Positions 1,669 to 22,382 of a DNA stretch of 64,000 nucleotides are shown piece after piece. The stretch is taken from the IMG/VR virus record IMGVR_UViG_3300045988_113151; one strand, 5' to 3'. Positions within the stretch are counted from its first letter, which is position 1. The number at the start of each line of letters is the position of its first letter. A model generated the notes under the pieces. The model made no database searches, was not told where the DNA came from, and saw only the letters and a program-made list of their open reading frames with translations. A program made the translations under genes and the position numbers. This stretch comes from a virus.

Positions 1669-2169
1669 CTATTTAGTTGAAATATTTAAATATTGTATTA
1701 TATCTTGTAAAGATATATCTTCGTCTTCAAGAGATTTTACTTCTTGCATAAAAGCTATAATATTATCTATAGATAATAAGCAAATATTATCGTTACAAAA
1801 TTTAATTACTTCTTCTTTATTTTTAATATTAAGATTATCTGCTATTATAGGCAATAACTCAATATTTTCATTAGCGTCATAATTGCGTACATAACGAACT
1901 CGTGAACATCTATCTTCCATATATTCACTTATATTACTTGTATCATTACAAGTCATAATTATAAGCTTTTTAGCAGTCTTTTCAACTCCATCTAAGAAAT
2001 CTAACATCTTTGTAGTATTAAATTTCTTTTCTATTTCATCAAATAAAATACATACTGGAGTTTCAAAAGTTTTAAAGAAGTTTATTAATTTATTTTCAGG
2101 AAATTTAGGGTCTATTATAATAATTGGCAAATTAGATTCTTTAGCTAATAATTTAGCTGTTACTGTTTT
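1669..2169 (-). CDS. AAA+ ATPase, exon 2 (starts inside the Walker A codons)
   Basis: The frame begins KTVTAKLLAKESNLPIIIID... with Walker B-like CILFDEIE. There is no ATG; the ORF track M is a TTG at the junction. It joins exon 1 to give GVLLAGTKGTG-KTV. It ends at TAG. Confidence 0.7.
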   Translation of the reverse strand, partial: KTVTAKLLAKESNLPIIIIDPKFPENKLINFFKTFETPVCILFDEIEKKFNTTKMLDFLDGVEKTAKKLIIMTCNDTSNISEYMEDRCSRVRYVRNYDANENIELLPIIADNLNIKNKEEVIKFCNDNICLLSIDNIIAFMQEVKSLEDEDISLQDIIQYLNISTK

Positions 2170-3253
2170 CAATTTTGTTATCGTTAGGTTTTTTATCCTA
2201 ACTTCTATAACTTCTAATTTGTTATAGTTCAGCGTACATTTTCATCTTTCTAAAAATAGTTAAGATGGAGAACACTCTTGGGAATATTATATTTATTCAA
2301 TTCCTACGCGTTACGCAGCTATAGATCCTTGCGAAATATCTATAGTTTGCTCGGTATTAGCATCACAGCCTTCACCGATTTTGCTCTCTAATAATTCATA
2401 CAATTTCTTATATGAACGGCAATATTGTTTATATAATTTATATTTTCTTTCTAAATATATAGTACTATTTTGATATAAAAAATTACATATTATAAAACCA
2501 GATCCTCTTGTAAAAATAAGTTCTGGAACAGAATGAGTAATTATAATTTTATGATTATTTAGTGGTAAATAATTTTGATATTTATTCAAAAATTCTACTG
2601 TACCACAAATTTTTATAGCAATTATGGTATGTTCTTTATTGCAATGTGTAATACATCCATCCCCATCAAAATATCCACGTAAAAAATCTTTTATTAAGTC
2701 TTTGCAACTAAATATATTTTCATTTGGAAACTTAAGTATATTAGATTTTTGTGGAACGCATCCATATTGTTTTAATGTATTACAAAAATGTTTGCTATTA
2801 AAAGAGCATCTATAAGCATTAAATACTTTATTATTTAATTTTACTTTTTTAAGTTTAATATTTCTACTGTGATTTATAAAATTATTAAACTTCTCAAGAT
2901 GTTCTTTATCTTTTTCAGCTAAAGACATTTCAAAACAGTTATCTCTCTTACTTATATTTCCATCTGCAAAAATAAAACCTAACCAATAAGCTTTTTCTTC
3001 TGTATCTATTGTATCAAACACATGTTCATTAATTTTTATCAAATTTTGACGATTTACTACTTTATATCCAGCTTTCTTAATTGCTCTAGAAATAGTCATT
3101 GCGTCTTTTTTATATTTTTTTGCTAAAAACTGAATGCTACATTTAGTATCTATATATTCTTTTATTATGTCTTCCATATCTATTAATTTAATTTTCTAAT
3201 AGAACGGGAAAAGTTATAATAAGTTATAAAAATTGTTAATAAATTATATTATT
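2170..3253 (-). mobile_element. self-splicing intron (probably group I) carrying a LAGLIDADG homing endonuclease
   Basis: It interrupts the P-loop GxxGxGK|T of the ATPase. The 5' exon ends in U (..GGAACUGGU|AAUAAU) and the insert ends in G (..AAAAUUG|AAAACA). Both match group I splice-site rules. Flanking non-ORF parts contain hairpins (ggaat..attcc, gttagg..cctaac). Confidence 0.6.
2311..3177 (-). CDS. LAGLIDADG homing endonuclease (intron-encoded)
   Basis: Two LAGLIDADG motifs, YWLGFIFADGN and FLRGYFDGDGC, plus an N-terminal HTH-like region. The C-terminus is ..QGSIAA. Confidence 0.9.
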   Translation of the reverse strand: MEDIIKEYIDTKCSIQFLAKKYKKDAMTISRAIKKAGYKVVNRQNLIKINEHVFDTIDTEEKAYWLGFIFADGNISKRDNCFEMSLAEKDKEHLEKFNNFINHSRNIKLKKVKLNNKVFNAYRCSFNSKHFCNTLKQYGCVPQKSNILKFPNENIFSCKDLIKDFLRGYFDGDGCITHCNKEHTIIAIKICGTVEFLNKYQNYLPLNNHKIIITHSVPELIFTRGSGFIICNFLYQNSTIYLERKYKLYKQYCRSYKKLYELLESKIGEGCDANTEQTIDISQGSIAA

Positions 3254-3526
3254 ACCAGTTCCTTTAGTTCCTGCTAATAATACTCCTGTTGTATTACTAG
3301 TAGTAGTGTTAAAATAGTTAATTATTCTTTTTCTAAAAATACTATCACTTTTAGTTTCATATATAGTACTAGGTAAATTTAGTTCACCATTTTCCTTAAA
3401 TATACTTCGCTCATTCCATCCATCCCACTCTAGATTATATACTTGATTAGGTATTAATTCATATTCATTACCTTTAGGTACAACAAATATTTCTTTACCT
3501 ATCTTAACAAATTCTTTTTTATTCAT
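3254..3526 (-). CDS. AAA+ ATPase, exon 1
   Basis: MNKKEFVKIG...TGVLLAGTKGTG, followed by a few intron codons and a stop in the ORF track. This is the Walker A N-half. Confidence 0.7.
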
Positions 3527-3529
3527 ATA

Positions 3530-3904
3530 TTATGATTTTAGTATATTAATTAAATTATCAACATCTTTATTATTGCGAACTATATAAAATTTAGTATTTG
3601 GTTCATTTAGACTTAAATAATATTTAAATAGTTTTTCCCTATTTGCCCAAGCGTCATTAGGGTATCCTTTACATTCAATAACAAAGTCTTTTCCTACAAA
3701 GTCAGGTAAATAAGTAATAGCTCTAATCTTAGAGCTATTATAAATAAAAGCTGGTAGCAAAGTATATCTATGTAATTCATAGTCTACTTTAATATCAGCT
3801 TCTTTTAATTTCTAGTACATATAAGCTTCTAGTTTAGATCGAAATATTATTCCATCTATTTCTTGTTTAGTAGCATTACGTACTTTCTTATTTTGTTTTA
3901 ACAT
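3530..3904 (-). CDS. PD-(D/E)XK nuclease (resolvase/VSR-like fold) with one in-frame TAG
   Basis: Manual translation from ATG 3904: MLKQNKKVRNATKQEIDGIIFRSKLEAYMY-TAG-KLKEADIKVDYELHRYTLLPAFIY...PDFVGKDFVIECKG. The TAG is at 3812-3814. The D..ExK core lies downstream of the TAG. Confidence 0.6.
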
Positions 3905-4205
3905 ATTTTACAGAATGAGTAAGATTTCCCTTAAAAAGAGCAAAATGTTCCAACCGTTCATAATATTTTCCTTCTTTAGTATAACCAACAGTTATTAAAA
4001 ATGAATAATCTTTTCCATTACGAAATGAATTAAATAATGCTGATATAGAACTACCTAAAAACTTACGTTTTTGGTTCCATTCAGTAAATTCACCACTTAA
4101 TATTTTACTAATAATAGTAGCAGGAAGTAACAATATTTTTCCTAGGATAACAGTTAAGTCAAAAGGTATAGCTAATATTTTACCTATAGTTTTTAATAGT
4201 TTCAT
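3888..4205 (-). CDS. hypothetical protein
   Basis: ORF track entry with short overlaps to both neighbours on the same strand. Confidence 0.5.
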   Translation of the reverse strand: MKLLKTIGKILAIPFDLTVILGKILLLPATIISKILSGEFTEWNQKRKFLGSSISALFNSFRNGKDYSFLITVGYTKEGKYYERLEHFALFKGNLTHSVKYVKTK

Positions 4206-5151
4206 ATAACCAATTTTTTATGTTTTCAAATCCATTTAATTTTATAGCATCAGATATATCCTTTGCATTCCATTTCTTATGCACTAATAGTGGTTTTAAA
4301 CCTGTTTTAAGGCTTATTTTACGAAGATATTTAATTCCAGCTGTATCTCTATCAAAACATATTAAAATGTGTTTAAAACGCTTCTTAAGGTTATCTAGAA
4401 CATCATCTGGAATAAATGTAGATTCTGATGCTGGAGAAATAGCAGATATACCCATTTCATACAAACACATAACATCTTTTAGTGATTTAGTAATTATGAG
4501 TAGATTATCAGTTTTAGGCAACTGTTTAAATCCTTGTATATCATACTGTCCTAAATTATTTCTCCATTTAGTATATTTATCTGCTAAAGGTCTGTATATT
4601 TTAAAGTTATTATAAACTTTATAAGCATACATGGGATTTTCTTTTTTATAAATCCCTTTCACTATACCATTGCAGAGATAATATTTAATACTATTTACAT
4701 TAAATTTCTTTAGTGTGTCGATACAGATATTAAATTGCGACCAGTAATTGATGTCTTCAGCTGTAAAATCTTGCCGAACTACACCAATTACTGTTTCTGT
4801 TGACGCTATATATTGCTTAGAGCTAACGAGTTTGGTATCGCTAGTAATTTTAAGTTTGTCTACTATGTCTAGTAATATATCATTATAATTGATTATTCCA
4901 GTATATAATGACACAAACTTTATAACATTACCGCAATCACCTGTTCCATGATCTTTAAAAAGTAGTTGTTTTGTACGTTTAGAATAGAATATCCCAAATG
5001 AAGGATTTTTATCCTTTCTAAATGGACTATTATAAATCATACCTACTTTAAATTGACCTAAATAATGAGCATATATATCATACTCTGTTACTCTAGATAA
5101 TATCCAATCTAAAGTAATATCGCTAAGTTTAGCTTTTTCTTTATCGTACAT
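4180..5151 (-). CDS. DNA primase (Toprim domain)
   Basis: Toprim-like LIITKSLKDVMCLYEMGISAIS ... ICFDRDTAG, in a replication-gene neighbourhood. Confidence 0.75.
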   Translation of the reverse strand: MYDKEKAKLSDITLDWILSRVTEYDIYAHYLGQFKVGMIYNSPFRKDKNPSFGIFYSKRTKQLLFKDHGTGDCGNVIKFVSLYTGIINYNDILLDIVDKLKITSDTKLVSSKQYIASTETVIGVVRQDFTAEDINYWSQFNICIDTLKKFNVNSIKYYLCNGIVKGIYKKENPMYAYKVYNNFKIYRPLADKYTKWRNNLGQYDIQGFKQLPKTDNLLIITKSLKDVMCLYEMGISAISPASESTFIPDDVLDNLKKRFKHILICFDRDTAGIKYLRKISLKTGLKPLLVHKKWNAKDISDAIKLNGFENIKNWLYETIKNYR

Positions 5152-5171
5152 ATGCTTTCTGATTTTGTTTG

Positions 5172-5225
5172 TCTAAGTAAAAGGACTCGAACCTTTTGAT
5201 GTAGCCTTATTCTACAGTTACTTAG
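5172..5225 (-). ncRNA. D-armless tRNA-like minihelix
   Basis: Minus strand: CTAAGTA-AC-TGTAG-AATAAGG-CTACA-TCA-AAAGG-TTCGAGT-CCTTT-TACTTAG-A. It has a perfect 7-bp acceptor stem, a canonical T-loop TTCGAGT and one further 5-bp/7-nt hairpin. There is no D arm. Confidence 0.5.
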
Positions 5226-5323
5226 TAATAACGTGTGCCTAATTTTAGGCACACTTATCAATTCCTAAAAACGAGGCTATTTCTAGCTTACGTAAATATT
5301 ACTTTTTTCTAAATTTTTTTAGT

Positions 5324-5944
5324 TTAGAAAGGTAGATCGTCTTCTTGCTTACTTAAAGCATCTTCTGCTTCTGCTGGAGATGACATGGTAGCTTGTAACG
5401 GATCTACCTGCTTTTCTGCATCTGCTTCAATAGGTTTAGTAAATTGGTCAATACCTAAAGCTACAATAGCAGAACTTTGTCCTTCTGGAAGTTCCATTGG
5501 TTCAATAAATGTATATGTTGAATGTCCAGGTAAAGTAGTATAACCATTTCTGTTATATACTACTTTAACACGTAATAAAGTATCTTTATTTGCATTATTC
5601 AACATATCTACGATAAATTGAGCAAATTCTTCAAATGAAGATCCAGTAAAGTTAATTTCTTCATCTTTATAGAAACACCAAAGAATTTGTAACATACGCT
5701 TAAACTGTCGATTTTCAGCTTGTTGTAAGTCTTCGTCTGTTACTATATATTGTCCTTTCTTAGGTTTCCATTCAGTGTGTTTCAAAGTAGCTCCATCTTT
5801 TTCAAAAGTAATCTCTAAAAAGGTTAAACCTGTAGGACTTACTTCAGTACGAGCTGATTTTAATTTTACATTTTCTTGAATACCTGCACCAATATATTTA
5901 ATATCTTTTGTTTCAATGCTTTTTGCTAATTCCTTGTTATACAT
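5324..5944 (-). CDS. ssb: single-stranded DNA-binding protein
   Basis: The acidic C-terminal tip ...KQEDDLPF resembles the SSB tail consensus D-D-D-I-P-F. It lies among replication genes. Confidence 0.65.
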   Translation of the reverse strand: MYNKELAKSIETKDIKYIGAGIQENVKLKSARTEVSPTGLTFLEITFEKDGATLKHTEWKPKKGQYIVTDEDLQQAENRQFKRMLQILWCFYKDEEINFTGSSFEEFAQFIVDMLNNANKDTLLRVKVVYNRNGYTTLPGHSTYTFIEPMELPEGQSSAIVALGIDQFTKPIEADAEKQVDPLQATMSSPAEAEDALSKQEDDLPF

Positions 5945-5957
5945 AACTTTCTAATTT

Positions 5958-6362
5958 TTAAGCTGCTAAATAAATTTTATCCCAATACGTTTTAATGTTA
6001 TTGTTTTCATCACTATCAGCAATAACAATTTTTTGTCCTCTTAAATGAGGAGCTCTAGCTTCTCTTACAGAGTTATCTCCACCTTCAAATGAAATAATAG
6101 TTTCATTCTTTTTACGATAGACATAACCTACTGCATCAGCTTCACCACAGACAATATCTCCTAGTCTTCCAACTAAGTCTATAGCCATTTCAGTTAATTC
6201 TTCTCCTTCCTTGTTAATCATTTTATCTTTAGTATGACCAACAAGAATAAAGTTATCACATAAGTCTTTAAACATATTAATAACTTTTTTAACTGCTTCT
6301 CTTAGATATAGATATCCAGAACCATTAGGTAATTGTCTAACATCAGTTCCAGTATATGTCTT
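5958..6362 (-). CDS. Sak4/AAA_24-like ATPase, exon 2 (boundary approximate)
   Basis: ..KTYTGTDVRQLPNGSGYLYLREA...FILVGHTKD...; this is the C-terminal half of a RecA-fold ATPase whose N-half is at 7227-7538. It ends ..KIYLAA. Confidence 0.65.
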   Translation of the reverse strand, partial: KTYTGTDVRQLPNGSGYLYLREAVKKVINMFKDLCDNFILVGHTKDKMINKEGEELTEMAIDLVGRLGDIVCGEADAVGYVYRKKNETIISFEGGDNSVREARAPHLRGQKIVIADSDENNNIKTYWDKIYLAA

Positions 6363-7226
6363 CCCCATTGGGGTTTGGCGATCTTTGTATTCTGTATAAG
6401 ACGCAACTCTTATACACGTTCTCTTATGAACTGCTATATGTCACCATATAGAATAGACTATATCATCTCCTTTTACCTTAAGCGGCAGTCAGGAGTTCCC
6501 CGTTTCCATTACCATTAGCTTGTAATGTACTCTCTTTCGAGATAGTCGTTGAACTTTCATTATGAAAATTGTTATAAATTTGTTCTACTTTTTGTAAAAA
6601 TAAATCTTTTTCAAATTTATTTTTCATTATATTGCAATACTTACAACAAGAAACACAGTTTTCTATAGTATAATCTTTTTTAGAATTTACTCTATCTATT
6701 CCAAATGCTCGTGGACAATTACAGTAATAACAGTTATTAGATAATAACTGCTTCATTTGTTCATCTGTAAGTTTTATAAGATAGCCTCTAGATTTAGCAT
6801 TACTTTTAATACTATTTATCTTATCTCTATAAGACTTAGTACTAGAAATTTTATATTTATTTTCAGCTGTTTCTTTTTGTCTATCTATAACGCAATTTGA
6901 ACAAGATACTGGTATATAAGTTCTACTTTTAGAAAATCTATCAGCTCGTACAACTGTAAATTTTCCGCATCTATTGCATTTACATTTGAAATAACTTCTT
7001 TTAATTTGTTTTTCTTTATCGTAAGTTTCATGATCTAACTCTATTATAGTTAGACATCCTACGGTAATTCCAATATATTTATCTAACGTTTCTTTTTTCA
7101 TAATGCTTAGCTTCTGATTGTTTTTACCACTATGTGTATATAACGTATGTAGTGGTAAAAATGTTCCAGAAATTAAGGGAATTTTTCGATAAGATTTTCA
7201 TCTTAAAGCTCCAATTATTTTTAGAG
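6363..7226 (-). mobile_element. intron (probably group I) carrying an HNH homing endonuclease; boundaries +/- about 15 nt
   Basis: It separates the two halves of one ATPase gene. The non-ORF flanks (6363-6477 and 7102-7226) are more GC-rich and hairpin-rich, for example ggtaaaaaca..tgtttttacc-type pairing at 7120-7160. Confidence 0.5.
6478..7101 (-). CDS. HNH homing endonuclease
   Basis: Cys-rich zinc motifs CKCNRCGK, CSNC and an HNH core CYYCNCPRAFGIDRVNSKKDYTIENCVSCCKYCNIMKN. The C-terminus is ..ELLTAA. Confidence 0.85.
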   Translation of the reverse strand: MKKETLDKYIGITVGCLTIIELDHETYDKEKQIKRSYFKCKCNRCGKFTVVRADRFSKSRTYIPVSCSNCVIDRQKETAENKYKISSTKSYRDKINSIKSNAKSRGYLIKLTDEQMKQLLSNNCYYCNCPRAFGIDRVNSKKDYTIENCVSCCKYCNIMKNKFEKDLFLQKVEQIYNNFHNESSTTISKESTLQANGNGNGELLTAA

Positions 7227-7538
7227 AGTCGCTGCATACGGCAGACACATTTCCTCTAATCTAGTAGCATTATCAATAGCTATATACTTATAAGGATTTG
7301 TGCCTGTTTCTTTAATCTTAGCTCTAATTGCATTAGCAATTTCTCCAAGATCAGCTACACTCCTAGCTTGTACAGATAGAGCTTCAAGAAACTCAGAACC
7401 ACCCTCTAAATCTACTATTAGACAGTTATCTAATGTAGATAATAGAGTAGTCTTTCCTGATTTTGGTTTACCAAAAATAATTAAAAATCTAGGATTTTGT
7501 ACTTTTGGTTTATTTTTTTCTGTAGGTAGTACTAACAT
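7227..7538 (-). CDS. Sak4/AAA_24-like ATPase, exon 1
   Basis: Walker A FLIIFGKPKSGKTTL, followed by LIVDLEGG and IAIDNATRLEE. Confidence 0.7.
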
Positions 7539-7614
7539 ATTTTTATTATTAGTACTTTACTTAGCAATGATATTATTCTGATATTTTATGATAGTATAAG
7601 TAAAGCAAGGTTTA

Positions 7615-8169
7615 TTATGCTGCAATATTAATATTAATGTTAATAATAACATTATTAATAGTTTCTTTTTGTTTTTCACTTAAGTTCTTAGGTAAGATAT
7701 AATAATTACCATATTTAGGAACATAAGTATTACCAACTTGAACAAAGTTCTGATAGAAACGAACAGGTACACCAAGCCATTTAAAATCATAACCTTTATC
7801 AAAGTTACCATTTACCGATTTAGCATAGTCATCAAGTTTCTTCATAGCTATATCAAATTGGTCAAGAAGATTATATTTTTCATACTTATAGACACTATTA
7901 AATGGACAAGTATAGCATGGCATATCTGCGCAAGGACATGTCCAAGACGATGGACGTAATGCAGATACGTGATATTTAGGAGAGATACCAAATGCAATAT
8001 AGTCATTAGGACCTGCATATTGCATACTAGTTTGTTCATTTTTAGGACCATCTATACCATCCATAGTTAAGTATGGATATTTATTAGCAATTGTATTAAT
8101 CAAGAAATTCTTCAATTCACCTGTTTTATCGTATTTCTTTTCCGGAAGTTCAATCAAAAATTGTTTCAT
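7615..8169 (-). CDS. hypothetical protein (Cys-rich centre, ends ..NINIAA)
   Basis: ORF track; the antisense and alternative-frame ORFs inside it were rejected. Confidence 0.6.
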   Translation of the reverse strand: MKQFLIELPEKKYDKTGELKNFLINTIANKYPYLTMDGIDGPKNEQTSMQYAGPNDYIAFGISPKYHVSALRPSSWTCPCADMPCYTCPFNSVYKYEKYNLLDQFDIAMKKLDDYAKSVNGNFDKGYDFKWLGVPVRFYQNFVQVGNTYVPKYGNYYILPKNLSEKQKETINNVIINININIAA

Positions 8170-8180
8170 AATTTCAGCCT

Positions 8181-9131
8181 TTAAATTTTTTTAAAAATAA
8201 CTTTTTCTTTATTTACTTCTGCGTTTGTTTCAATCAAGTTACCGTATTTTAGTTCATTATCAAATGCTAATATGCAAGGTTCTCCAGCATCTCTTACTTT
8301 TAAGAAATGTAGATATACTTTATTTTTTACAGGTAAACGATTAACACCATAAATTGCTAACCCCAGCAATTCTGGTCTTGATAATGCCATAACAAAGTCA
8401 CTAGCTTGAAATATAGCATCAGAAGCTGCTAAGTCACTCCTCATCGGATAATGGCTACTTGGATTATTAAGTCTATCAGGTTGTTCAATATTTCGATTCA
8501 TCTGTGAAATCTGTATTATACTAGTAAAAGATAATTTCTTCATTCGTATAAACATTTTCTGTAAATCTACTATTGTACCTCTTTCACTATCTCCTTCGAC
8601 AAGAAGAGCATGGTCTAATATTATAATTAACCACTTGTCTTTTGCAATATTATCGTGAAAGTATTTTATAGTTTCTTCTATCTTTTCTACACTGCAAGGA
8701 GTATCTACATAATATATTGGATACTTCTTAATAGATTCTACTGTAGTTTTTACCTTAGTAAAATCTTCATCAGATAAATCTGCTTCAGCACTATATAATT
8801 CTGAAGTTGTTTTTCGTAACTTATTACTTAGTTTTCTACCTATTTGTCTATAACTAAGCATTTCGAAACTAAAACTGAGAATAACTATATCCTGATCAGA
8901 ATTAAGGTCAATTAAATCAGTTTCTAATGTATTAGCAAATGCTGATTTACCAGAACCAGAACCTCCTGCTATTGTTAATATCATATTTGGTTCGATTCCG
9001 CCACACGTAACTCTATTGAATTTACTCCAACGAGTCTTTAGTGGTACTATAGTATGGTTTTTCCTATTTTCTATATATTTAACAGATTCATCTGCTACTT
9101 GAGAAATAGTTTTAAATAATATTGGCTCCAT
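8181..9131 (-). CDS. DnaB-like replicative helicase (RecA-fold domain)
   Basis: Walker A ILTIAGGSGSGKSAF and Walker B LIIILDHALL, in a replication context. Confidence 0.7.
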   Translation of the reverse strand: MEPILFKTISQVADESVKYIENRKNHTIVPLKTRWSKFNRVTCGGIEPNMILTIAGGSGSGKSAFANTLETDLIDLNSDQDIVILSFSFEMLSYRQIGRKLSNKLRKTTSELYSAEADLSDEDFTKVKTTVESIKKYPIYYVDTPCSVEKIEETIKYFHDNIAKDKWLIIILDHALLVEGDSERGTIVDLQKMFIRMKKLSFTSIIQISQMNRNIEQPDRLNNPSSHYPMRSDLAASDAIFQASDFVMALSRPELLGLAIYGVNRLPVKNKVYLHFLKVRDAGEPCILAFDNELKYGNLIETNAEVNKEKVIFKKI

Positions 9132-9687
9132 AAGCTATTTCATTATTTATATCTTGTTCCATACTAAATTGCATTTCTTCTTCAGTAACTTCCCACTCTC
9201 GTTGAGTGAGCCATTTCCACATTGTTTTCATATATCCTATTTTACCAGTTATCATCTTATTATCAATTTCAAACTGAAGACATTTGATTAAATGTTCATG
9301 CATTGCTCTAGATTTTCCGACAATCCTATTGTATTCCTTTCTACATTTGTTAATATTAGAACGTAGGAATCCTTTAGTACCATCAGGTCTAGTAACATAC
9401 ACTGGAAATACTTCATAGAATTCATCAAACCAAGATTTATCTTGTTTAAGACGTTTTCTTGTATCTTCTGAAATACTATAAATTTTACTATCACCAGAAG
9501 TTATAACTGTGATAATGTTACTGTCGACTAACTCTTGAATTTCGTTCTCACTAATTCGGCTGAGAAATTGGTGAATGTCTTGATTATTACTTTGATTCTC
9601 ATTCAAAACAAGAGTTAGAAATACTAATTGATTAATTGACATTTTTCCATAAATGTCGAATAACGATGTATCTAATTCTAGTATCAT
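9112..9687 (-). CDS. hypothetical protein (possible helicase loader or replication organiser by position)
   Basis: ORF track; it overlaps the helicase gene start. Confidence 0.5.
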   Translation of the reverse strand: MILELDTSLFDIYGKMSINQLVFLTLVLNENQSNNQDIHQFLSRISENEIQELVDSNIITVITSGDSKIYSISEDTRKRLKQDKSWFDEFYEVFPVYVTRPDGTKGFLRSNINKCRKEYNRIVGKSRAMHEHLIKCLQFEIDNKMITGKIGYMKTMWKWLTQREWEVTEEEMQFSMEQDINNEIAYGANII

Positions 9688-9736
9688 AATATAGTTTTAT
9701 TTTTATGAGCTAGCTGATATCATCTGAAAATATTTG

Positions 9737-11746
9737 TTAAAATAAGCTCAACTGTTTAGGTTCAAGCTCTTCTATTATCTTAAGGCACTCTTTTAAATAG
9801 TACCGATAATTAATCTTTCTTTCTTCTATAGGTTTGTTATCAAATTTGTTTAATATAGTAATACCAGATGCCGTTAATAGATTAGTAAAATTAGTTCTTC
9901 TACCTTCAGAATCTACTAAACATTTATATAAATAAGGACCATTAGTAGATGCATAAAACCTATTTATACGTTGTATAAGGTTATTATTATATTCTACAGA
10001 GAACTTCTTATCTACTTTCTGGTAAGTGAGAAACTTATTAATATCTTTACAATTATAAATAGTATCTCTTACTGGTATATTATCAACAAAATAATCTCTA
10101 ATTGCTTCAGGAATTATCTTAGGAGACATACCTTTGCCGAGTAATACTTTAGTAATAAACATACCTTTTTCTTTTATATAATCATCTTTAATTGCATCTA
10201 AAGATGTATAAGGTTTGCCTTTTTTATTTAAAGCTTTTTCAGGATTTGTTTTAAATAGTTTCTTCATTTCCTGATATCCTTCAGATACTGCTATATAATC
10301 ATTAATAGCATACTGATACATAGCTTCAAAACGGTCTTCTTCTAATACAAGTTTAGTTTGTTGTTCCCAACTTCTACATATTTCTTGTACTTTACTATAA
10401 TAATCTTTTTTAAGTAATACAAATAGACCATCTGTGTTAGCTTGTACTATTCTACAACCTATATCTGTTAATGATTCAGCTAACATAAGTAATAACAGCT
10501 GACCATTAATTCGGATTTGCATAACTGCAAATGGACTATAACAAAAGTTATGTTCATTTTGTAAGTTACCACTTAATCCATTTAAAGCTAATTTTAAGGT
10601 TTCGTTTTTAACTTTATTACCTGTATGTTTAGCTTCAATTCGTTCGTTCTTAATCTGTGAATATACTTCTAAGAACTCTGGACCTAAATGTTTAGGATAA
10701 AACTTATATTCTATTAGCATACTAGGATATAGAGATGCAACGTCAATGTCTATTAACATTTCATCTTCCTTAGGAATAATTATTTCTGGATTATTTACAG
10801 AATGTATTCCTCCAACTCCTACTGAATATCTTAAACCTCTAAATACAAACTTATTTTCGTATCCTTTTCTTCCTGGAGAAACTATTTGTTTCTTCATATC
10901 AGATAATACATTTTTTAGTATAGGATCTCTATATTCAATAAAAGGTAATATTACTTCATTTAGTGCTATAACATCTGCTGGACTTCTTAAATCTTTAATA
11001 TCCCACCAAGTTAAACCTGTTTTTTCGAGATACTTTTGAGTTAAGATTTTCATGCCAATATTTACACCATCTTTACTTAATACTCTTACTCCATATTCAT
11101 CTTCAATTGCTATTCTTAATTCAACTTTATCTTTACATTTATTTAGTAATGCTTCAGTTGAATCTACATCATTTATATTATATTCAATCATTTCATCAAT
11201 TAAATCTGTATCTAGAGGTTTTGTCCAATCATGAGCAAACTCTAATACATTTTTGTATTGCATAGTTACTTGTATTTCTTTTAGACCTACACGTAACTTT
11301 TGAGAATATAACATAGTAAGAATATCAAATGTTTCAAAATTAACAGCATATTTCCACCTTTTCCAAGCAGATATATCGTCAGAAGTAGTTATAATTTTAC
11401 TTAGGTTATATAAACTATCACAAATTCTTAGATAGTTCATATTAATCATTTTATCGTAATAACTTATTATATAATTTATAATAGCATTATCATAATGAAG
11501 ATTATTATACCCAGCAAATATTTTATTAGTATTAAATTGTATATCTGTAGTATATATATCATTCCAACTATAAGAATTATTTCTTATAGTATAGAAGAAA
11601 TCTACAAGTTGTCTTAACTCATTTTTTCTACATGATATTTCAAATTTATAATATTGTCCAGTTTCTGTATTTTTAGCAGTACAATGAAACACATTTTGGA
11701 AGACTTCGATATCATATACATATACTGTTTTTCCTCTTATCTTCAT
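9737..11746 (-). CDS. family B DNA polymerase
   Basis: Exo motifs YVYDIEV, YNNLHYDN and YNINDVDST. Polymerase motifs DVASLYPS, KLALNGLSGN and QANTDGLFV. The start is set at MKIRGK (11746) because the longer ORF-track start overlaps the tRNA. Confidence 0.9.
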   Translation of the reverse strand: MKIRGKTVYVYDIEVFQNVFHCTAKNTETGQYYKFEISCRKNELRQLVDFFYTIRNNSYSWNDIYTTDIQFNTNKIFAGYNNLHYDNAIINYIISYYDKMINMNYLRICDSLYNLSKIITTSDDISAWKRWKYAVNFETFDILTMLYSQKLRVGLKEIQVTMQYKNVLEFAHDWTKPLDTDLIDEMIEYNINDVDSTEALLNKCKDKVELRIAIEDEYGVRVLSKDGVNIGMKILTQKYLEKTGLTWWDIKDLRSPADVIALNEVILPFIEYRDPILKNVLSDMKKQIVSPGRKGYENKFVFRGLRYSVGVGGIHSVNNPEIIIPKEDEMLIDIDVASLYPSMLIEYKFYPKHLGPEFLEVYSQIKNERIEAKHTGNKVKNETLKLALNGLSGNLQNEHNFCYSPFAVMQIRINGQLLLLMLAESLTDIGCRIVQANTDGLFVLLKKDYYSKVQEICRSWEQQTKLVLEEDRFEAMYQYAINDYIAVSEGYQEMKKLFKTNPEKALNKKGKPYTSLDAIKDDYIKEKGMFITKVLLGKGMSPKIIPEAIRDYFVDNIPVRDTIYNCKDINKFLTYQKVDKKFSVEYNNNLIQRINRFYASTNGPYLYKCLVDSEGRRTNFTNLLTASGITILNKFDNKPIEERKINYRYYLKECLKIIEELEPKQLSLF

Positions 11747-11763
11747 AAAATATAGTTTTATAG

Positions 11764-11837
11764 TGATTCTATTGCGATTCGAACGCAAAACCTACACTTT
11801 AGAAGAGTGTTGCTCTATCCAATTGAGCTATAGAATC
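11764..11837 (-). tRNA. tRNA-Arg (anticodon UCU)
   Basis: Minus strand: GATTCTA-TA-GCTC-AATTGGATA-GAGC-A-ACACT-CTTCTAA-AGTGT-AGGTT-TTGCG-TTCGAAT-CGCAA-TAGAATC-A. This is a complete cloverleaf with no encoded CCA. Confidence 0.85.
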
Positions 11838-11875
11838 AAGTGAGGCATTAAAATTTATGCCTCGTATAAATTATT

Positions 11876-12880
11876 TTAAACTGCTTCTGCTGTGTAATAG
11901 TCAGGATATAAATTCTTAAGTTCTTTAAGTTTTATTTCATAATCTTTTGATGAAGCAGTCCATCCAGTACATATTCGCAATAGTTGATCTGTAGCATTAT
12001 CATAAATATTAATGCTAATAAAATCTTCTATTTTATCTACTAACTTAGCAGATAAAGCTGTTAATGAATCATGCAAATATGCTAAGGTTTTATTAGAATA
12101 ATTCTTAACAAATACTACTGGTTTATGTTCTGAGTTAAATTTTCTGAACTCTAAACGATACTTAAATCTAGCTAGTTTCTTTTCTCGTATCGCTTTTATC
12201 AGTTTTTGTATTTTAGTTTCATGTGCAGATTCTTCTGCTGCATGCTTTAAATAGTTATTAGCTTTACCGTATTCTTCACTGTTCGAGACTAAATCTTTAC
12301 GCCATAAACTAAATTCTCGGCTATCTAATTTACTGAGTTTTAGTAATTTAGCAGAATCTCTTCTTTTCTTATTTTCAGATTGAATATTCATTTTATCAGC
12401 CTCATTTATAGCTGATTTTAAATATCGGATATCTTTTACTTTTGATATATTATTTTTAGTAGCAAAAGAAATATCTTTTAGTGTTGGCTGTCTTCTTATA
12501 GTTTTACTATAAGTTTTATTTTCAGTGTTAAAGTTAATAGTATAAGTAATTTTCTGATTAGCTAACGCAGCTTTTGCAGCTTTAGCTACAGTATTCCATT
12601 CAAAAACGATATCTGTCTTTGCTCCTTTACTTGGATTAGGTTTTGTAGTAACTATTTTAATTTTCTTATCAATAGTTTCTTCTTCTATTTCGTATAGTTC
12701 TTCTAATTTCTTATTCTTCTCCATCAAGGCATTTATCTTGCGATTACGATTTTCTGAATATCGTTTCATCTTTGCCTCATATCTTTCTAGAGGAGTTTTT
12801 ACTGCTTTTTCCTGAATTACGAAATATTTTTCACCTGTTTCTTTATTTCTTTTATTTAATTTGATAGTATATTTTTCCAT
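11876..12880 (-). CDS. hypothetical protein (Lys-rich, 334 aa)
   Basis: ORF track. Confidence 0.6.
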   Translation of the reverse strand: MEKYTIKLNKRNKETGEKYFVIQEKAVKTPLERYEAKMKRYSENRNRKINALMEKNKKLEELYEIEEETIDKKIKIVTTKPNPSKGAKTDIVFEWNTVAKAAKAALANQKITYTINFNTENKTYSKTIRRQPTLKDISFATKNNISKVKDIRYLKSAINEADKMNIQSENKKRRDSAKLLKLSKLDSREFSLWRKDLVSNSEEYGKANNYLKHAAEESAHETKIQKLIKAIREKKLARFKYRLEFRKFNSEHKPVVFVKNYSNKTLAYLHDSLTALSAKLVDKIEDFISINIYDNATDQLLRICTGWTASSKDYEIKLKELKNLYPDYYTAEAV

Positions 12881-12900
12881 ATTGATTACGAATTTTAATT

Positions 12901-12941
12901 AATAAAAAAGTAGTTAGTAAGTAATATACCTACTAACTACT
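12901..12941 (-). terminator. intrinsic terminator-like hairpin
   Basis: A 15-bp stem with one mismatch (agtagttagtaagta / tacctactaactact) and a 3-nt loop. On the minus strand it is followed by CTTTTTTATT. Confidence 0.5.
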
Positions 12942-12976
12942 AACTACTAAAAATAAACACACAACAATAAAAACAA

Positions 12977-13483
12977 CTAAGCTGCCAAGCTTAAAGGAGC
13001 GATAGTATCATCAAACTCCGTTTCGTTATTAAACTTTTCAAGTTTATTGTTCAATTCAATTATTTGTAAATCTAGTTCTTTAATACGTGCAAATTTCCAG
13101 TTAGAAGTAAAAATTTCTGTACGATTTAAATTTTTCTTACCTTTCTTTGCTTTAAGAACAGGATTTAATGTTCGAAAACTATTTGAACTAATTTTATTAC
13201 GAATTTCTTTTAGCTCACATAGACGAAAAATGTCTAACTGATTACAATCTTTCGGTAAATCACTTAGTTTCTTAAGTCCCATATTAATAGCAAGTAACTT
13301 AAGTTTAATCAATGCACGCTTTTCAGCAAGCATTTTGATTTCTTCAAATAAAACTTTTAGGTCATATTTACGCATATAGTTTTTATTTACTACATTTTCT
13401 GCATAAATAATGTCCCAATATTGTTTTAACTGATATGATATATTATTACGTTCTTCTATAAAATTCTTTGATTTCTTTGTCAT
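12977..13483 (-). CDS. hypothetical protein (ends ..PLSLAA, TAG stop)
   Basis: ORF track. Confidence 0.6.
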   Translation of the reverse strand: MTKKSKNFIEERNNISYQLKQYWDIIYAENVVNKNYMRKYDLKVLFEEIKMLAEKRALIKLKLLAINMGLKKLSDLPKDCNQLDIFRLCELKEIRNKISSNSFRTLNPVLKAKKGKKNLNRTEIFTSNWKFARIKELDLQIIELNNKLEKFNNETEFDDTIAPLSLAA

Positions 13484-13770: not shown

Positions 13771-14316
13771 TTATGGTTTCCGTACTAGTATTTCCACATC
13801 TCCTATTACTTCACCACTATTTAATATAACAGATGCTTGTTTTTGTGAAAAAGCAATTGTTTCAAGACCTTCATTTTTTCTAGTAGGTCTAGAACTAGAC
13901 ATATTTATATATTGGCTAGTATATTCTCCATCCATATTACCGCCATATCTTAGAACATCAAAAAGCATATCAATTACATATTCATAGTTATTATTCCGAA
14001 CAGCTTTATCCATAAAATCCTTAGTCATCCCATCAAACACAGGATTAGAATAATTACCATTTGGAACTGATATAACATCCATAATTGTTAATGCTAAATC
14101 ACGAAAACTTATATCTTTATAGTCACTAAACCATAAGCATAACCATTTAAATCGCCGTCTTTTAGTATAGAAACGAACTGATCCATCATCATGAATTTCT
14201 ATACTACCAACAACCTTATCACCCATCGTGATATGTTTATAGACATACTTATTATTTAGTATAAAACGTAATAAGTCTTTATGAACTTCACTAATTTTTA
14301 CTTCTGTGTTGTTCAT
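13771..14316 (-). CDS. hypothetical protein
   Basis: ORF track. Confidence 0.6.
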   Translation of the reverse strand: MNNTEVKISEVHKDLLRFILNNKYVYKHITMGDKVVGSIEIHDDGSVRFYTKRRRFKWLCLWFSDYKDISFRDLALTIMDVISVPNGNYSNPVFDGMTKDFMDKAVRNNNYEYVIDMLFDVLRYGGNMDGEYTSQYINMSSSRPTRKNEGLETIAFSQKQASVILNSGEVIGDVEILVRKP

Positions 14317-14327
14317 TTTTATTTATA

Positions 14328-14888
14328 TTAAAGTCCATATTGACGATAATATTCGTCACAGCTCTGCTGCTGACCTTTAATAAGTTCTTTAAGCATAGTC
14401 ATCTGTGCTAAGAAATCATTAGCAAGTGCCTCTGCCTTCTCTGCTTCCTGTTTGTTACGGAAATTAGCTTCATCTGTCAATCGTTTCCGATCGGCAAAGA
14501 ATAGCGGAGTCTGATTATTCTTAGCTCGAATACATGCTTCTTCAATTGCCGAATTATCTGTTGCTTCTGCAAAGAATTTCGGTTCTTGAACAATCTTAGC
14601 CCGTAATTCTGGCTTTTCGTTGAACTCAATGAAAATCTCATCATTAATAACAAGAAGTCGTTGAGATGACACAAGAACAGTGTTAACCATATATTTTAAT
14701 AGTGGTTCTACTAACCGTGGATGTTGATTAGTAAGTTCCTTCTCACGATGAGAAAGATCAACATTGTCAACTTGCAAATAACAGATAGTCTTACCTAAAA
14801 GGCTACCCATATTACTTACTACCTTACGAGCATCCCGTAAGCGTGCTTCAATTTTCTGTTCGTTTCCTTGATTATAATTATTTTCCAT
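14328..14888 (-). CDS. hypothetical protein
   Basis: ORF track. Confidence 0.6.
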   Translation of the reverse strand: MENNYNQGNEQKIEARLRDARKVVSNMGSLLGKTICYLQVDNVDLSHREKELTNQHPRLVEPLLKYMVNTVLVSSQRLLVINDEIFIEFNEKPELRAKIVQEPKFFAEATDNSAIEEACIRAKNNQTPLFFADRKRLTDEANFRNKQEAEKAEALANDFLAQMTMLKELIKGQQQSCDEYYRQYGL

Positions 14889-16938
14889 TTTGATAAAATT
14901 TTTATTTAATTGCAGAACCCATCGTTCCTAAGTAACACACTAGCAGTTCTCTTAATTCAGTATAATTAATAGGCGTCTTATATCCTATCGCTTTTAAAAA
15001 GCTTAGAAATAATTATAGTAAATCTCTAATTCAATAGATACTATACATATTACCATTATAAAAAATCTGATACAGTATGATAAAACTCGACATTTAATTC
15101 TTATTTACCTTCACTGATACTATTCTGATAACTTCTGCAATTAAGGTTGTTTGAAATTATTTGTTAATTCTCTGATATTTATTATCGTAGTTATATTCTA
15201 GAGCTCTTGGTAGAGGTGCATACAACAGGGACTCTAATGGTAAGAGATATATACCCCGTAAGATAATTGGTTTAGCTGATTATTTAAAGAGCCTAACAGT
15301 AAATACCTAAAAACGTGCTCTACTCATTTTTATCCATTCGTCAGTTGAGTGCTGGGTTTCTGATACTGTATATTATATCTACCGAGACAGGGTAGACCTT
15401 TTGTCGACATCAGCGCTGCCGGTTTTGTTATGAGCTGTTTATGTTTCAAAACACCCACTCTATAGCCTTGTATTACTCACAGGCTGCGTGTACTTACGAC
15501 TTTGTTCTTATCCTGCACATAATTCTAGGATTTCCACCTATCATCCCTTAATGGAGGGAATCAGTGTCACTTTACATATATTGTTGCGCAATATACTTTA
15601 AGTGGTTCTAGTGTTAGCAATTATATTGTACAGTCGAGGGTGGCTCGATATAGCTTTTAACTATACACTATACTACCATTGGACTTCCTCATTGCTTTAG
15701 TTGAACATGTTAATAATCTCACAAAAAGAAACCCTTACATATTAGACTTACTATCTACATTTAGTGTCAGTAAAGTGTAGCTGCTAAAATGGGGAATGCA
15801 CAGATTATACTCCGATCTGCTTCGTCCTCTAGGTTAAAATATTTCACGACTTTCCTTACTGGTTGTAAGGCTCAATGTTTTTAAATATACAACGTTATCT
15901 CAATGTTGCCAACTCGAATTTGATCAGGGAGTTATTTCTCCACTAGCTTTAGATTTTCTGTTTATACTAATTACTTCTAATCTATGATATAGAGTTTTCT
16001 GGCTCTTCATCCCATATCTACTTTATTTCCTAGTGCAAAGCACTTTAGGTTTATACTCATCTAAGTAGCAACTGAGTTTAATTATAATATTACTTAGTCC
16101 ACACAATCCCATTAAACTGAGAATTATTTCTTGCAAAATACTTTAATTATACTTCCGATTAGTTATTAAATATAACATTACATATAGGCTTTATACCTAA
16201 TCCAGTTAATCTATATTATATCCATCTTACTTACAACGTAAGTTCTATATAATGATCATAGCTACTCAGCCAAAAGGCATGTAATTTACTACTCACTTAT
16301 CATATAATTAAATAGTGCTATAATATTTATAATTCTACCTTCATACATACTGCTTTAAACATTCTTTCTTTAATGCACACTTCCAATTTAAGCTTTCCAA
16401 AGGCACGTGTCAGTATGGAACACTATAGTAGTATTTTTAGTAACTTTATAGCTACAAGGAAGATTTGGAGTCTACCTAGAATGCTTAACGATTCTATAAA
16501 TACATATCTACTAAAGTTTGGAGCTTTAGTACTTTCTTTATCCTCGCACTTTGCGAGTTTGCGACTCGTGTAAGGTAACATTCCCTTTTGATATTCAGTT
16601 TGATAACTGGTATTCGAATGTATTAACGATACCTGGCATTGTTTAACTTCATAAATCTGCTGATTTAATCGTTGCGTCTTTAGTCACCAATCGGTTCTCA
16701 CTGAGGATGTGCCACGCTCTTCCTCTTTCTCGTCATTTCTTCAGTCTTAAACAGTAAATTCGACATGATCAAGTTATTATACCTTCGTTCACTCAATAAT
16801 AGTGGTAGCTATTATTCCAGCCTCTAGTATTATGTACTGTTAATGCTTACTTTACTCAATTTCAGCATTCCTCTTCCTATTTGAATAGGAGCGTCTAGGC
16901 GAAGCAATTACGTTGCTAACGAATGCAGTTTATAGCTC
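14889..16938. other. about 2.05-kb ORF-free island, candidate large structured RNA(s) or regulatory region
   Basis: Only one 66-aa ORF in six frames. Hand translation of 16621-16938 in two minus-strand frames shows frequent TAA, TGA and TAG. It is visibly more GC-rich than the flanking genes and has many local hairpins (ctaccGAGACAGggtag, tccctTAATGGaggga, tcgagGGTGGctcga). Confidence 0.5.
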
Positions 16939-19793: not shown

Positions 19794-20351
19794 TTAGTAA
19801 ATATTTGCTATTTTTTGTTTTAATCGTTGTCTTGCTTTATTTAAATCTGATTTAACTTTAGATTCTGGTAAAGCAAATTTTTCAGATATCTCATTATAAG
19901 ATAGACCTTCTATTCGAGCGTTTATTAAATCTCTATATTTCTTTCTAAGTGTTAGAATAGCTTGTTCAACTATTTTTACTTTTTCTTGTAAAACTAATTG
20001 TTCTTCAGGACTTTTTTCGATATTTTCTAATTGAATAGTATTATCTTCATCGTCCATATAGTTATTTAATTGCTCTTTCTTATTTCTTCTTATATAATCT
20101 ATTGAACTGTTAACTGCAATAGTTTTTAACCACATTTCAAATGAAATATGTTGTACATAAGAATCTAATTTTTGATAAGCTTTAGTAAATACTACAGATG
20201 TTAAATCATCTGCTATATCTGTATTCTTTACTATATTATAAATAGTAAACCAAATATTTGATTTATATAATTTATAAAGCTTAGTAAAGGCACTTTCTGA
20301 ACCTTGTTTAGCCTGTTCTACTAAAGTAATTACTTCTTGTGTCATAGGCAT
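19794..20351 (-). CDS. ECF-type sigma-70 family RNA polymerase sigma factor
   Basis: Region 2-like DIADDLTSVVFTKAYQKLDSY...FEMWLKTIAVNSSIDYIRR and a region 4 HTH LSYNEISEKFALPESKVKSDLNKARQRLK. Confidence 0.8.
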   Translation of the reverse strand: MPMTQEVITLVEQAKQGSESAFTKLYKLYKSNIWFTIYNIVKNTDIADDLTSVVFTKAYQKLDSYVQHISFEMWLKTIAVNSSIDYIRRNKKEQLNNYMDDEDNTIQLENIEKSPEEQLVLQEKVKIVEQAILTLRKKYRDLINARIEGLSYNEISEKFALPESKVKSDLNKARQRLKQKIANIY

Positions 20352-20397: not shown

Positions 20398-20808
20398 CTA
20401 AAATGGTAAAGTCGATATATAGTATCTACTACATTCAGCAAATCTAAAGTTAAACAAAAGAAGTATATGATTTCCCCAGTATATTTTAGCAATCTCTGGT
20501 ATTTGTAATTTATCTATCATATTTATTACAATTCTAAGTTTTACTCTAGATGTACTTTCTGTAATAGTAAATCCTTTATCATTTATTAGACAATCTACAA
20601 TAGGTTGAAATATAGTTCTATTTGCATATCTAGCTAATTCTACTACTTCTTTACTTCTATGAATAGTAAAATCTAAAGGATAGATATGCGGATCATCTTC
20701 TATGTTATAATACTTATCACTAAGATATTTTTCACATATAGGATTATAATTGAACATATATTCATAAGGTAGATTTTTGTTAATAGTATCTAAAACTTCG
20801 ATAAGCAT
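20398..20808 (-). CDS. hypothetical protein (TAG stop)
   Basis: ORF track. Confidence 0.55.
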   Translation of the reverse strand: MLIEVLDTINKNLPYEYMFNYNPICEKYLSDKYYNIEDDPHIYPLDFTIHRSKEVVELARYANRTIFQPIVDCLINDKGFTITESTSRVKLRIVINMIDKLQIPEIAKIYWGNHILLLFNFRFAECSRYYISTLPF

Positions 20809-22283: not shown

Positions 22284-22382
22284 ATTAGTAGGATTTTCAC
22301 CTACTTTGAAGCTTTGCGACATTTAGTCTAGGAGTGGTTTATACCCTTGCCAAGAGGAATCGAACCTCTATGCTTCTGACCG

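Follow-up and report, generated by a model that had tools for sequence, protein, structure and literature searches.

The terminal Ala-Ala (AA) of the ssrA tag, with its free carboxylate, is essential for the recognition of tagged proteins by ClpXP (PMC7142297). Genome-encoded ssrA-like degrons are already known. The natural AA tail of sigma-AntA in Streptomyces is a proven ClpXP degron, which is abolished by an AA-to-DD change and is kept in 67 of 71 orthologues; there the tail takes over from another regulator in limiting how long the protein lives (PMC7142297). In an unbiased screen in Escherichia coli, 91% of the top 100 C-terminal degrons ended in AA; in this bacterium AA is necessary but not sufficient, since short polar residues, Pro, His and Gly at position -3 weaken the tag (PMC10862746). 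In this study, we focused on AA ends among the predicted proteins of a 64-kb stretch of viral DNA, IMG/VR record IMGVR_UViG_3300045988_113151 (the window, by which we mean the whole stretch analysed). The window comes from a TAG-recoded crAss-like phage in the family Suoliviridae (delta-group), close to cr6_1. Judged from the predicted proteins, the AA tag is carried by roughly 10% of Suoliviridae early and middle proteins, namely replication and recombination proteins encoded near the DNA polymerase, AAA+ ATPases and some of the resident homing endonucleases, and is nearly absent from virion proteins. With moderate confidence, we propose that the AA carboxylate is a genome-encoded, positively maintained ssrA-like degron, or a handle for host ClpX(P)-type machinery.

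The phage tails share with the ssrA tag (C-motif 1) the terminal Ala-Ala and the free carboxylate, and the best-conserved of them end in LAA, IAA or LLAA. However, the ssrA tag is added by trans-translation, whereas the phage tails are encoded in the genes, are diverse upstream of the AA and would in many cases be weak by the rules derived from E. coli. Like sigma-AntA they are genome-encoded AA carboxylates, and in two polymerase-adjacent phage families their conservation (82-87%) is comparable. Sigma-AntA, however, is one cellular regulator in one pathway, whereas here about a dozen unrelated phage protein families and mobile endonucleases carry the tail, which marks a viral family as a whole.

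Lambda O, MuA transposase and RK2 TrfA are replication proteins under the control of host ClpX or ClpXP. The likeness to the present case is that phage replication and recombination proteins serve as ClpX substrates, and the tails described here lie on the replication module. However, the signal of lambda O is N-terminal and that of MuA is basic and C-terminal, neither of them is AA, and each of these proteins is a single substrate. In the C-terminal Ala-tailing by RqcH of Bacillus subtilis, a run of alanines added post-translationally to stalled chains acts as a ClpXP degron. This system resembles the phage tails in the use of C-terminal Ala as a degron and differs from them in that the tail is not gene-encoded and is found in another bacterial phylum.

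Ala-Ala ends in the window and in related phages

When the standard code was applied before 36.7 kb and TAG was translated as sense from 36743 on, AA ended 7 of the 78 open reading frames (ORFs) of at least 50 residues in the window, and 7 of the 58 ORFs of at least 100 residues. The seven are as follows.

2311-3177, minus strand: LAGLIDADG homing endonuclease (Pfam LAGLIDADG_3, PHROG endonuclease), ending ..ISQGSIAA
5958-6368, minus strand: exon 2 of a Sak4-like (AAA_24) recombination ATPase (Pfam, tblastn), ending ..KIYLAA
6478-7101, minus strand: HNH homing endonuclease inside the Sak4 intron (PHROG endonuclease VII/HNH), ending ..GELLTAA
7615-8169, minus strand: 184-residue protein between the DnaB-like helicase gene and Sak4, ending ..NINIAA
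12977-13483, minus strand: 168-residue protein two genes upstream of the DNA polymerase gene, ending ..APLSLAA and followed by TAG
46695-47357, plus strand: free-standing GIY-YIG homing endonuclease, lying between the gene for the major capsid protein and the late gene that follows, ending ..TEDAANAA
62269-62868, plus strand: head-fibre-like virion protein with one in-frame TAG (Phage_head_fibr, Phage_fiber_rpt), ending ..ALETPAA

All seven ends read as an earlier note on this DNA had given them (QGSIAA, KIYLAA, ELLTAA, NINIAA, PLSLAA followed by TAG, DAANAA and ETPAA); their last three residues are IAA, LAA, TAA, IAA, LAA, NAA and PAA. The same note held that these ends lie far above what composition predicts, and the counts agree with it (7 against 0.17-0.18 expected, P ~1e-9). 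Alanine makes up 4.8% of window residues, which gives an expectation of 0.18 AA ends (binomial P = 8e-10), and the internal frequency of the AA dipeptide (0.00217) gives 0.17. Allowing for all 400 dipeptides, the chance of one of them ending at least 7 ORFs of the window is 4.5e-5. By block, the ends fall on 5 of 43 minus-strand ORFs, 0 of 13 plus-strand ORFs in the standard code and 2 of 22 late ORFs. Both Ala codons stand in frame within each ORF and the stop codon follows directly, so that the ends are not products of trans-translation. The seven ORFs end in Ala-Ala with a free alpha-carboxylate, and their orthologues end at the same point. An eighth AA-ending ORF (30 residues) is merely the reading frame of the tag of a transfer-messenger RNA (tmRNA). 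In the independently annotated RefSeq record of cr6_1, 6 of 97 coding sequences (CDS) end in AA, and one further 'EIKQAA-TAG' is annotated as read through.

A tabulation in relatives had been proposed in the earlier note, and the enrichment persisted in it. We counted the same-strand ORFs of 80 IMG/VR Suoliviridae loci centred on the DNA polymerase gene (polymerase identity 67-99%), of which 250 of 1886 end in AA (13.3%) against 4.8 expected. When ORFs were grouped into families, AA ended the majority of members in 8 of 54 families of the replication module and in 0 of 55 families of the late structural module (Fisher P = 0.003). When distinct tail contexts were counted, the AA ends amounted to 31 of 250 in the replication module and 4 of 192 around the capsid gene (Fisher P = 5e-5). 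The runner-up terminal dipeptide of the replication module is PF, which belongs to tips like those of SSB and accounts for 10 of the 250 distinct tails. The rise in alanine is abrupt: Ala occupies 3-5% of positions -14 to -3 in the replication module and 13.5% and 13.8% of positions -2 and -1. These two positions are coupled, with 36 AA observed against 6.5 expected under independence. In the late module Ala is flat, at about 6% by position.

The same ORF pipeline was applied to other groups. AA ended 1 of 1727 ORFs in 73 replication loci of Steigviridae (5.8 expected) and 0 of 525 ORFs in 22 Carjivirus loci of Intestiviridae (1.3 expected). By genome, the counts were 0/114 ORFs in the whole genome of crAss001 (Steigviridae), 0/59 in cr8_1, 1/50 in crAss002 and 0/44 in LMMB. 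In cr131_1, a member of Suoliviridae (Oafivirinae) whose polymerase is 51% identical, AA ended 2 of 43 ORFs, both of them just upstream of the polymerase gene. In loci of Bacteroidota hosts, 3 of 732 ORFs end in AA and 3.3 are expected. These counts from Steigviridae, Intestiviridae and hosts reject the idea that AA ends characterize crAss-like phages, or Bacteroidota, in general. In Steigviridae AA ends are weakly depleted, with 1 unique protein where 4.9 would be expected (P = 0.04), and this is the pattern that degron avoidance would produce.

It is hardly credible that the ends are functionless and came about through shared ancestry, through composition or mutation bias at gene ends or as an artefact of gene calling. 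Many of the 250 AA ends are indeed mutual orthologues, and the tail of the fibre is a single homologous tail. However, AA remains the top dipeptide after collapse to families or to distinct tails (31/250), Ala is raised at -1 and -2 only, the codons vary, and tails within one family can be unrelated apart from the AA. Moreover, the same pipeline returned 0-0.06% in the two sister families and 0.4% in hosts, and the count from the cr6_1 RefSeq record agrees with ours.

Orthologues hold Ala-Ala while the codons shift among GCA, GCT and GCG. TAG follows the AA in 36 of 234 cases, compared with 223 of 1726 overall, and is not in excess. We examined 37 distinct AA tails over the 18 nt before and the 24 nt after the stop, and found no flanking nucleotide motif beyond GCN GCN. 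A nucleotide-level motif was considered as the cause and rejected, as nothing is conserved outside the two Ala codons; an origin by slippage was also rejected, as identical codon pairs are no commoner than the marginal codon frequencies predict. There is a bias in codon choice: of 37-39 distinct AA tails, 7-10 have GCG as the last Ala codon, compared with 4% of internal Ala codons, and GCA stands at the penultimate position in 26 of 37, where about 15 would be expected. Tails not ending in AA have no third-base bias. Because the jump in Ala is confined to -2 and -1, the codons vary synonymously, the tails are convergent and the late genes have no signal, the AA end is clearly a selected feature at the level of the protein.

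Protein families and homing endonucleases with Ala-Ala ends

The 168-residue protein at 12977-13483 belongs to the family with the best-conserved AA tail. Of the 39 unique orthologues in the related loci, 32 are AA-ended and the remainder have VA or TA, and in a wide protein search 28 of 29 homologues were Ala-ended. In the tail, P[ML]x[LI][AVT]A at the carboxyl end is preceded by an acidic stretch, and this pattern is recognizable down to 34% identity. In the orthologues the Ala codons vary synonymously and the stop is TAA in most. The earlier note supposed that late suppression of the TAG of the window copy would mask its LAA end; the prevalence of TAA stops among the orthologues and the background frequency of TAG after AA speak against it. 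The AlphaFold2 model of the protein is helical, with a predicted local distance difference test score (pLDDT) of 92. Its last approximately 14 residues are without secondary structure at pLDDT ~60 and may therefore be accessible; this is the only confidently modelled tail.

Two further genes of the window belong to families in which AA ends are frequent, and end otherwise in the window itself.

11876-12880, minus strand: 334-residue protein directly upstream of the DNA polymerase gene, ending ..YYTAEAV
1669-2172, minus strand: exon 2 of a classical AAA+ ATPase (Pfam AAA, PHROG ATPase/clamp-loader-like), ending ..NISTK and followed by TAG

The family of 11876-12880 is usually AA-ended, and the window copy has the near-cognate AV. 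AA is found in 46 of 53 unique orthologues and AV in the remainder. At least eight unrelated AA tails occur among these orthologues (..EIKQAA, ..IKSAA, ..YKHAA, ..KKLAA, ..RLNAA, ..HNEAA and ..YYSAA among them), and in the wide search 29 of 36 proteins ended in ..YY[NSA]AA. The AlphaFold2 model is poor (pLDDT 72, with the last 3 residues below 50). Neither this protein nor that at 12977-13483 had a significant PDB match (AlphaFold2 and Foldseek) or a match in Pfam or PHROGs. In cr6_1 (NC_055894.1, 49990-50814), the RefSeq CDS continues for 35 residues past a TAG that directly follows ..EIKQAA. Because orthologues stop there with TAA, these extra residues are probably an annotation error, at least where early expression is concerned.

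In the AAA+ ATPase family 34 of 59 unique orthologues end in AA, with tails such as ..ECCDAA and ..LKTAA. The ATPase at 5958-6368, which the earlier note had called Sak4-like, keeps both this identity and its AA end, and it is not a whole gene but exon 2 of an intron-split one. AAA_24 profile positions 98-175 lie in 5958-6368 and positions 5-84 in 7221-7538 (Pfam). With an unsplit 246-residue orthologue as tblastn query, residues 1-105 aligned with 7538-7224 and residues 107-246 with 6380-5961. The intron (~840 nt, ~6381-7223) is polymorphic. It is absent from a relative, L002, whose DNA polymerase is 99% identical and in which an uninterrupted 246-residue Sak4 (14251-14991) is 97-100% identical to the two exons of the window. 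The ends of the Sak4 family alternate among ..IYLAA, ..IYLDECAA and ..IYLPE, so that two different AA solutions occur. The protein at 7615-8169, which had no family match in Pfam or PHROG, ends in AA in 9 of 45 unique orthologues (..NINIAA, ..SANIAA, ..INTAA), and other members end in ..LNI, ..NNE or ..RGLF. AA ends also prevail in an AAA_5 ATPase family that is absent from the window (25/39), in a 269-residue family (13/13) and in a 137-residue family (3/4). Within one family the residues before the AA are often unrelated and the end alone is constant. The variants found in these families, VA, TA, SA, AV and AS, are single-step neighbours of AA, and LVA, AAV and ASV are classic weaker variants of the ssrA tag.

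Short exposed tails that are conserved in replisome proteins are known from the ..DDDIPF tip of SSB and the clamp-binding QL[SD]LF motif, and the window has such tails of its own. The DNA polymerase (9737-11788, minus strand) ends in ..EPKQLSLF, which resembles a clamp-binding motif, and LF is present in 64 of 76 orthologues. The proteins at 5324-5944 and 20398-20808 (both minus strand) end in ..DDLPF and ..STLPF, like SSB tips, with PF in 43 of 44 and 41 of 41 orthologues. The AA carboxylate could likewise be a docking peptide for a partner that does not degrade it, either a replisome hub encoded by phage or host, or ClpX acting as a remodelling chaperone only; the tails would then gather or arrange the replication-module proteins and not have them destroyed. 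We consider this explanation possible, though on balance unlikely. It would fit the concentration of AA tails around the genes for DNA polymerase, helicase, primase and Sak4 and the presence of ..KQLSLF, ..DDLPF and ..TLPF in the same genome, and a restriction to one family would suit a family-specific partner. It would also fit the acidic stretch and P[ML]x[LI][AVT]A of the 12977-13483 family, for which docking is possible given this longer motif. However, the SSB and clamp motifs comprise 5-6 residues in one protein class, whereas the AA end has two residues on unrelated folds in a variable context. Docking of this type would call for a motif of at least five residues, and only -1 and -2 are constrained across the AA families. 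Two constrained residues, with upstream sequences that are basic, acidic or hydrophobic according to the family, hold little information for a specific site. Furthermore, three unrelated families of selfish endonucleases with no obvious role in the replisome have gained the same end, and no candidate partner was identified.

The three AA-ended endonucleases of the window are identified by matches to LAGLIDADG_3, to GIY-YIG with NUMOD1 and NUMOD3, and to PHROG HNH/endonuclease VII. Two of them are flanked by exons of their host genes, the LAGLIDADG enzyme lying in the intron of the AAA+ ATPase (exons 3242-3514 and 1741-2169) and the HNH enzyme in that of Sak4. Among LAGLIDADG homologues of at least 62% identity, 6 of 9 end in ..GS[IM]AA. 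In 111 remoter homologues, many of them on contigs of more than 100 kb, the homologous tail is kept as ..GSESV, ..GSEIM or ..GSESA, and AA occurs in 1 of the 111. Close homologues of the HNH enzyme end in ..GNGE[LF]L[TNS]AA (or VA, TA) and others in ..EHPEKDGDIV or ..GKGENP; AA is present in 4 of 150 representatives. The commonest end of the GIY-YIG family is ..FIWKYKE, and the window copy has an extra tail, ..FIWKSE-RTEDAANAA. In the DNA polymerase loci, AA ends most members of a LAGLIDADG family (4/6) and of an HNH family (3/5). The endonuclease lineages resident in these phages have gained AA where distant homologues end otherwise.

The earlier note had ascribed AA ends to every free or intron-borne homing endonuclease, and this was overstated. 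The window holds a counter-example, and the LAGLIDADG insertion in its ThyX has no terminus of its own.

34292-35257, plus strand: dGTP-diphosphohydrolase N-domain fused to NUMOD4 and HNH_3 (Pfam), ending ..ELETTQK

In this HNH-type ORF, NUMOD4 scores 35.8 bits, over its threshold, and HNH_3 scores 19.5 bits, under its threshold. The emphasis on endonucleases was also too narrow, with AA in only 2 of 7 endonuclease-like genes of the cr6_1 RefSeq record and in 4 of 44 unique GIY-YIG homologues. An AA end as a general property of homing endonucleases is rejected, since most endonucleases in the relatives are without it. The endonucleases are affected by the phenomenon and are not its core, which is formed mainly by replication-module proteins in a single phage family.

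The fibre, which the earlier note had also counted, probably does not belong to it. The conservation of its tail ..ALE[TA]PAA is limited to close relatives, which share a single homologous tail; the tail has Pro at -3 and is on a virion protein, so that the ..ETPAA end is probably incidental. Another family of the late virion module, that of 49639-50619 (plus strand), has AA in 26 of 63 unique members (41%) and AE, AG or AV in others. Its tails are short, variable and Ala-rich after ..F[IV][TS]G, and the window copy ends in ..GVVAE. This is the only late family with frequent AA ends.

Phage tmRNA, TAG recoding and layout of the window

The earlier note pointed to a tmRNA-like gene of the phage's own with a tag ending in IAA. 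The gene is real by ARAGORN and Rfam, and the amber-suppressor tRNA of the window lies at the start of the late block.

22092-22472, minus strand: permuted tmRNA-like gene, called by ARAGORN and by Rfam (tmRNA_permuted, scoring 48.5 bits where 47 is the threshold), with the predicted tag VRNDKSFVTDYTRIAA (..TDYTRIAA)
36636-36708, plus strand: amber-suppressor tRNA with anticodon CTA (ARAGORN, Rfam), at the start of the late block

A tRNA-like match adjoins the tmRNA-like gene, and the combined region is 22068-22472 (minus strand). The last codons of the tag are ATT GCA GCG TAA. Tags of relatives end in ..TRIAA, ..TRITA or ..THVA, and a tmRNA is annotated in RefSeq at the syntenic site of cr131_1. 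The text of the review of crAss-like phages contains no phage tmRNA (PMC10136315). TAG is a sense codon from 36743 onward, and the early block (1-36.6 kb) uses it as a stop. Reading TAG as sense raises the coding coverage of 36-64 kb from 0.52-0.92 to 0.91-0.99, and the large late ORFs contain 9-14 in-frame TAGs each. The tRNA syntenic to that at 36636-36708 is annotated as tRNA-Gln in cr6_1.

An AA before the stop could tune termination, ribosome rescue or the tmRNA pathway, in connection with the recoding of TAG to Gln and with the tmRNA. TAG recoding is shared by every AA-rich genome examined, namely the window, cr6_1, cr131_1 and the full set of 80 late loci, and a tmRNA is present in the window and in cr131_1. 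The preference for GCG as the final and GCA as the penultimate codon matches the end of the phage tmRNA tag, GCA GCG TAA. One gene per genome was checked in crAss001, LMMB (an early gene) and cr8_1; none of the three contained an in-frame TAG, and these genomes have essentially no AA tails. AA tails and TAG recoding are nevertheless not separable here, as every Suoliviridae relative sampled is recoded, and the co-occurrence comes from a single clade and is effectively one observation. Stop codon usage after AA is at background, there is no flanking motif, third positions still vary, and the late genes, which are the recoded ones, are without the AA signal. We know of no termination effect specific to Ala-Ala and regard a cause in translation as improbable.

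The placement of the window in Suoliviridae rests on its DNA relationship, its TAG-recoded late genes and its introns and probable intein. Overall, the unannotated record MT835473.1 matches the DNA most strongly. Among classified relatives the best matches are cr6_1 (Suoliviridae, Bearivirinae, Afonbuvirus) and cr114_1/cr115_1, and cr6_1 is 85% identical over aligned pieces that amount to 8% of the query. Suoliviridae have been described as reading late-gene TAG as Gln, as rich in introns and inteins and as never cultured (PMC10136315); the TAG recoding, introns and probable intein of the window agree with this description. The minus strand of 1-29 kb forms the early/replication block, and coding is on the plus strand from 29.5 kb onward. 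Other features of the window are as follows.

31969-33744, plus strand: ThyX thymidylate synthase ORF of 591 residues, about twice the normal length
19794-20351, minus strand: ECF-type (extracytoplasmic function) sigma factor with Sigma70_r2 and r4_2
23627-23780, minus strand: structured RNA, RAGATH-9 (Rfam, 129 bits)
24887-25025 and 26928-27040, minus strand: two Hatchet ribozymes (Rfam, 86 and 89 bits)
27414-27650, minus strand: structured RNA, RAGATH-14 (Rfam, 169 bits)
14889-16938: ORF-poor stretch of about 2 kb

ThyX contains an in-frame LAGLIDADG-like insertion at residues ~268-297, which is probably an intein; tblastn against other crAss-like ThyX genes gave two aligned pieces that cover only 45% of the ORF. 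The sigma factor belongs to the early block, is kept in cr6_1 and cr131_1 and does not end in AA. The structured RNAs are clustered among small early genes, and all are far over the Rfam thresholds. The location of the ORF-poor stretch, upstream of the replication genes, is conserved among three Suoliviridae genomes, with counterparts at 45796-47875 of the cr6_1 record and 10303-12339 of cr131_1. Neither an Rfam match (E <= 0.1) nor any notable repeat was found in it; it may represent an origin of replication or a new kind of RNA.

Readings of the Ala-Ala end

In the degradation reading, host ClpX(P)-type AAA+ machinery would bind the exposed AA carboxylate, which would mimic the ssrA end ..YALAA, and the bound protein would then be degraded or its complexes disassembled. 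The outcome would be a short or tunable lifetime of replication-module proteins during the infection cycle, with the activity of potentially toxic nucleases capped. We infer both the part of a protease or unfoldase and the degradation itself. Host tags of the appropriate type were read directly from genomes, a literature search for 'GENNYALAA' having returned nothing. Among 120 Bacteroidota loci, 101 had a tmRNA call by ARAGORN, and the tag was GENNYALAA in 89 of these and GETNYALAA in 6. The loci were picked with a pattern encoding a tag of the GENNYALAA type, so the counts attest to the wide distribution of such a tag but not to its universality. Bacteroides, Prevotella/Segatella, Parabacteroides and Muribaculaceae are included, and these hosts use ..LAA tags (..YALAA). 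The hypothesis of the earlier note, that these ends are built-in degrons which limit the lifetime of endonucleases above all, holds in part: the AA end is selected at the protein level and matches the ClpX determinant, and the focus on endonucleases is not supported.

Several points weigh against a degron. Position -3 is heterogeneous; in 36 distinct tails it is hydrophobic in 17 (L 7, I 5), so that L or I make up 12 of 36, but S, T, N, Q, G or P make up 14. AA tails are missing from two further crAss-like families whose hosts belong to the same phylum, and therefore the function of AA is not generally required. The host loci show no depletion of AA ends (3 against 3.3, at low power). AA ends are also found on virion proteins, namely the fibre and the 49639-50619 family (41%). 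The two best-conserved AA tails are on predicted proteins adjacent to the polymerase, and one of them is acidic with a hydrophobic tip like that of SSB. ClpX and ClpP are assumed to be present in the hosts from general knowledge, and the instability of AA-tailed proteins towards ClpXP is likewise something that we infer.

The same recognition logic would allow the tails to act as decoys, in which case abundant AA-ended early proteins would saturate host ClpXP (and SspB-like adaptors) and so shield other phage proteins or block proteolytic responses of the host. The tailing of many different proteins would agree with this. However, a single highly expressed decoy would suffice, and the upkeep of tails on about a dozen enzymes, low-abundance endonucleases included, runs contrary to what titration predicts. 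We therefore consider decoys very improbable.

An extension of the degron reading is that the AA ends of Suoliviridae form a proteolytic timer on the scale of the proteome, which together with the phage tmRNA and the amber-suppressor code switch drives the transition from early to late infection. Products tagged by the tmRNA may compete for ClpXP late in infection, or TAG read-through may mask some of the tails; if there is such a timer, the GCA GCG bias of the final codons may be a trace of the link to the tmRNA. We regard this extension as distinctly doubtful.

What is apparently new is the scale of the phenomenon, with about a dozen unrelated families and roughly 10% of the module, its restriction to one viral family, the convergence of mobile endonucleases on the AA end, and its occurrence together with a phage tmRNA and a switch of code. 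In the literature searched, no paper connects C-terminal AA tails or ClpXP with crAss-like phages or with homing endonucleases.

The signature separates Suoliviridae (13%) from the sister families (0-0.06%) and may aid annotation. AA ends also help to place the true stops in TAG-recoded genomes, as in the 'EIKQAA-TAG' of cr6_1, and the tails suggest native degradation tags for synthetic biology in Bacteroides. If the degron reading is true, Suoliviridae would be the first virus lineage found to write a degradation signal of host quality control into a large share of its early proteome, homing endonucleases included. It would add a post-translational layer to the temporal regulation of phages and to the taming of selfish nucleases, and it would provide an experimental entry into an abundant, uncultured family of human gut phages.

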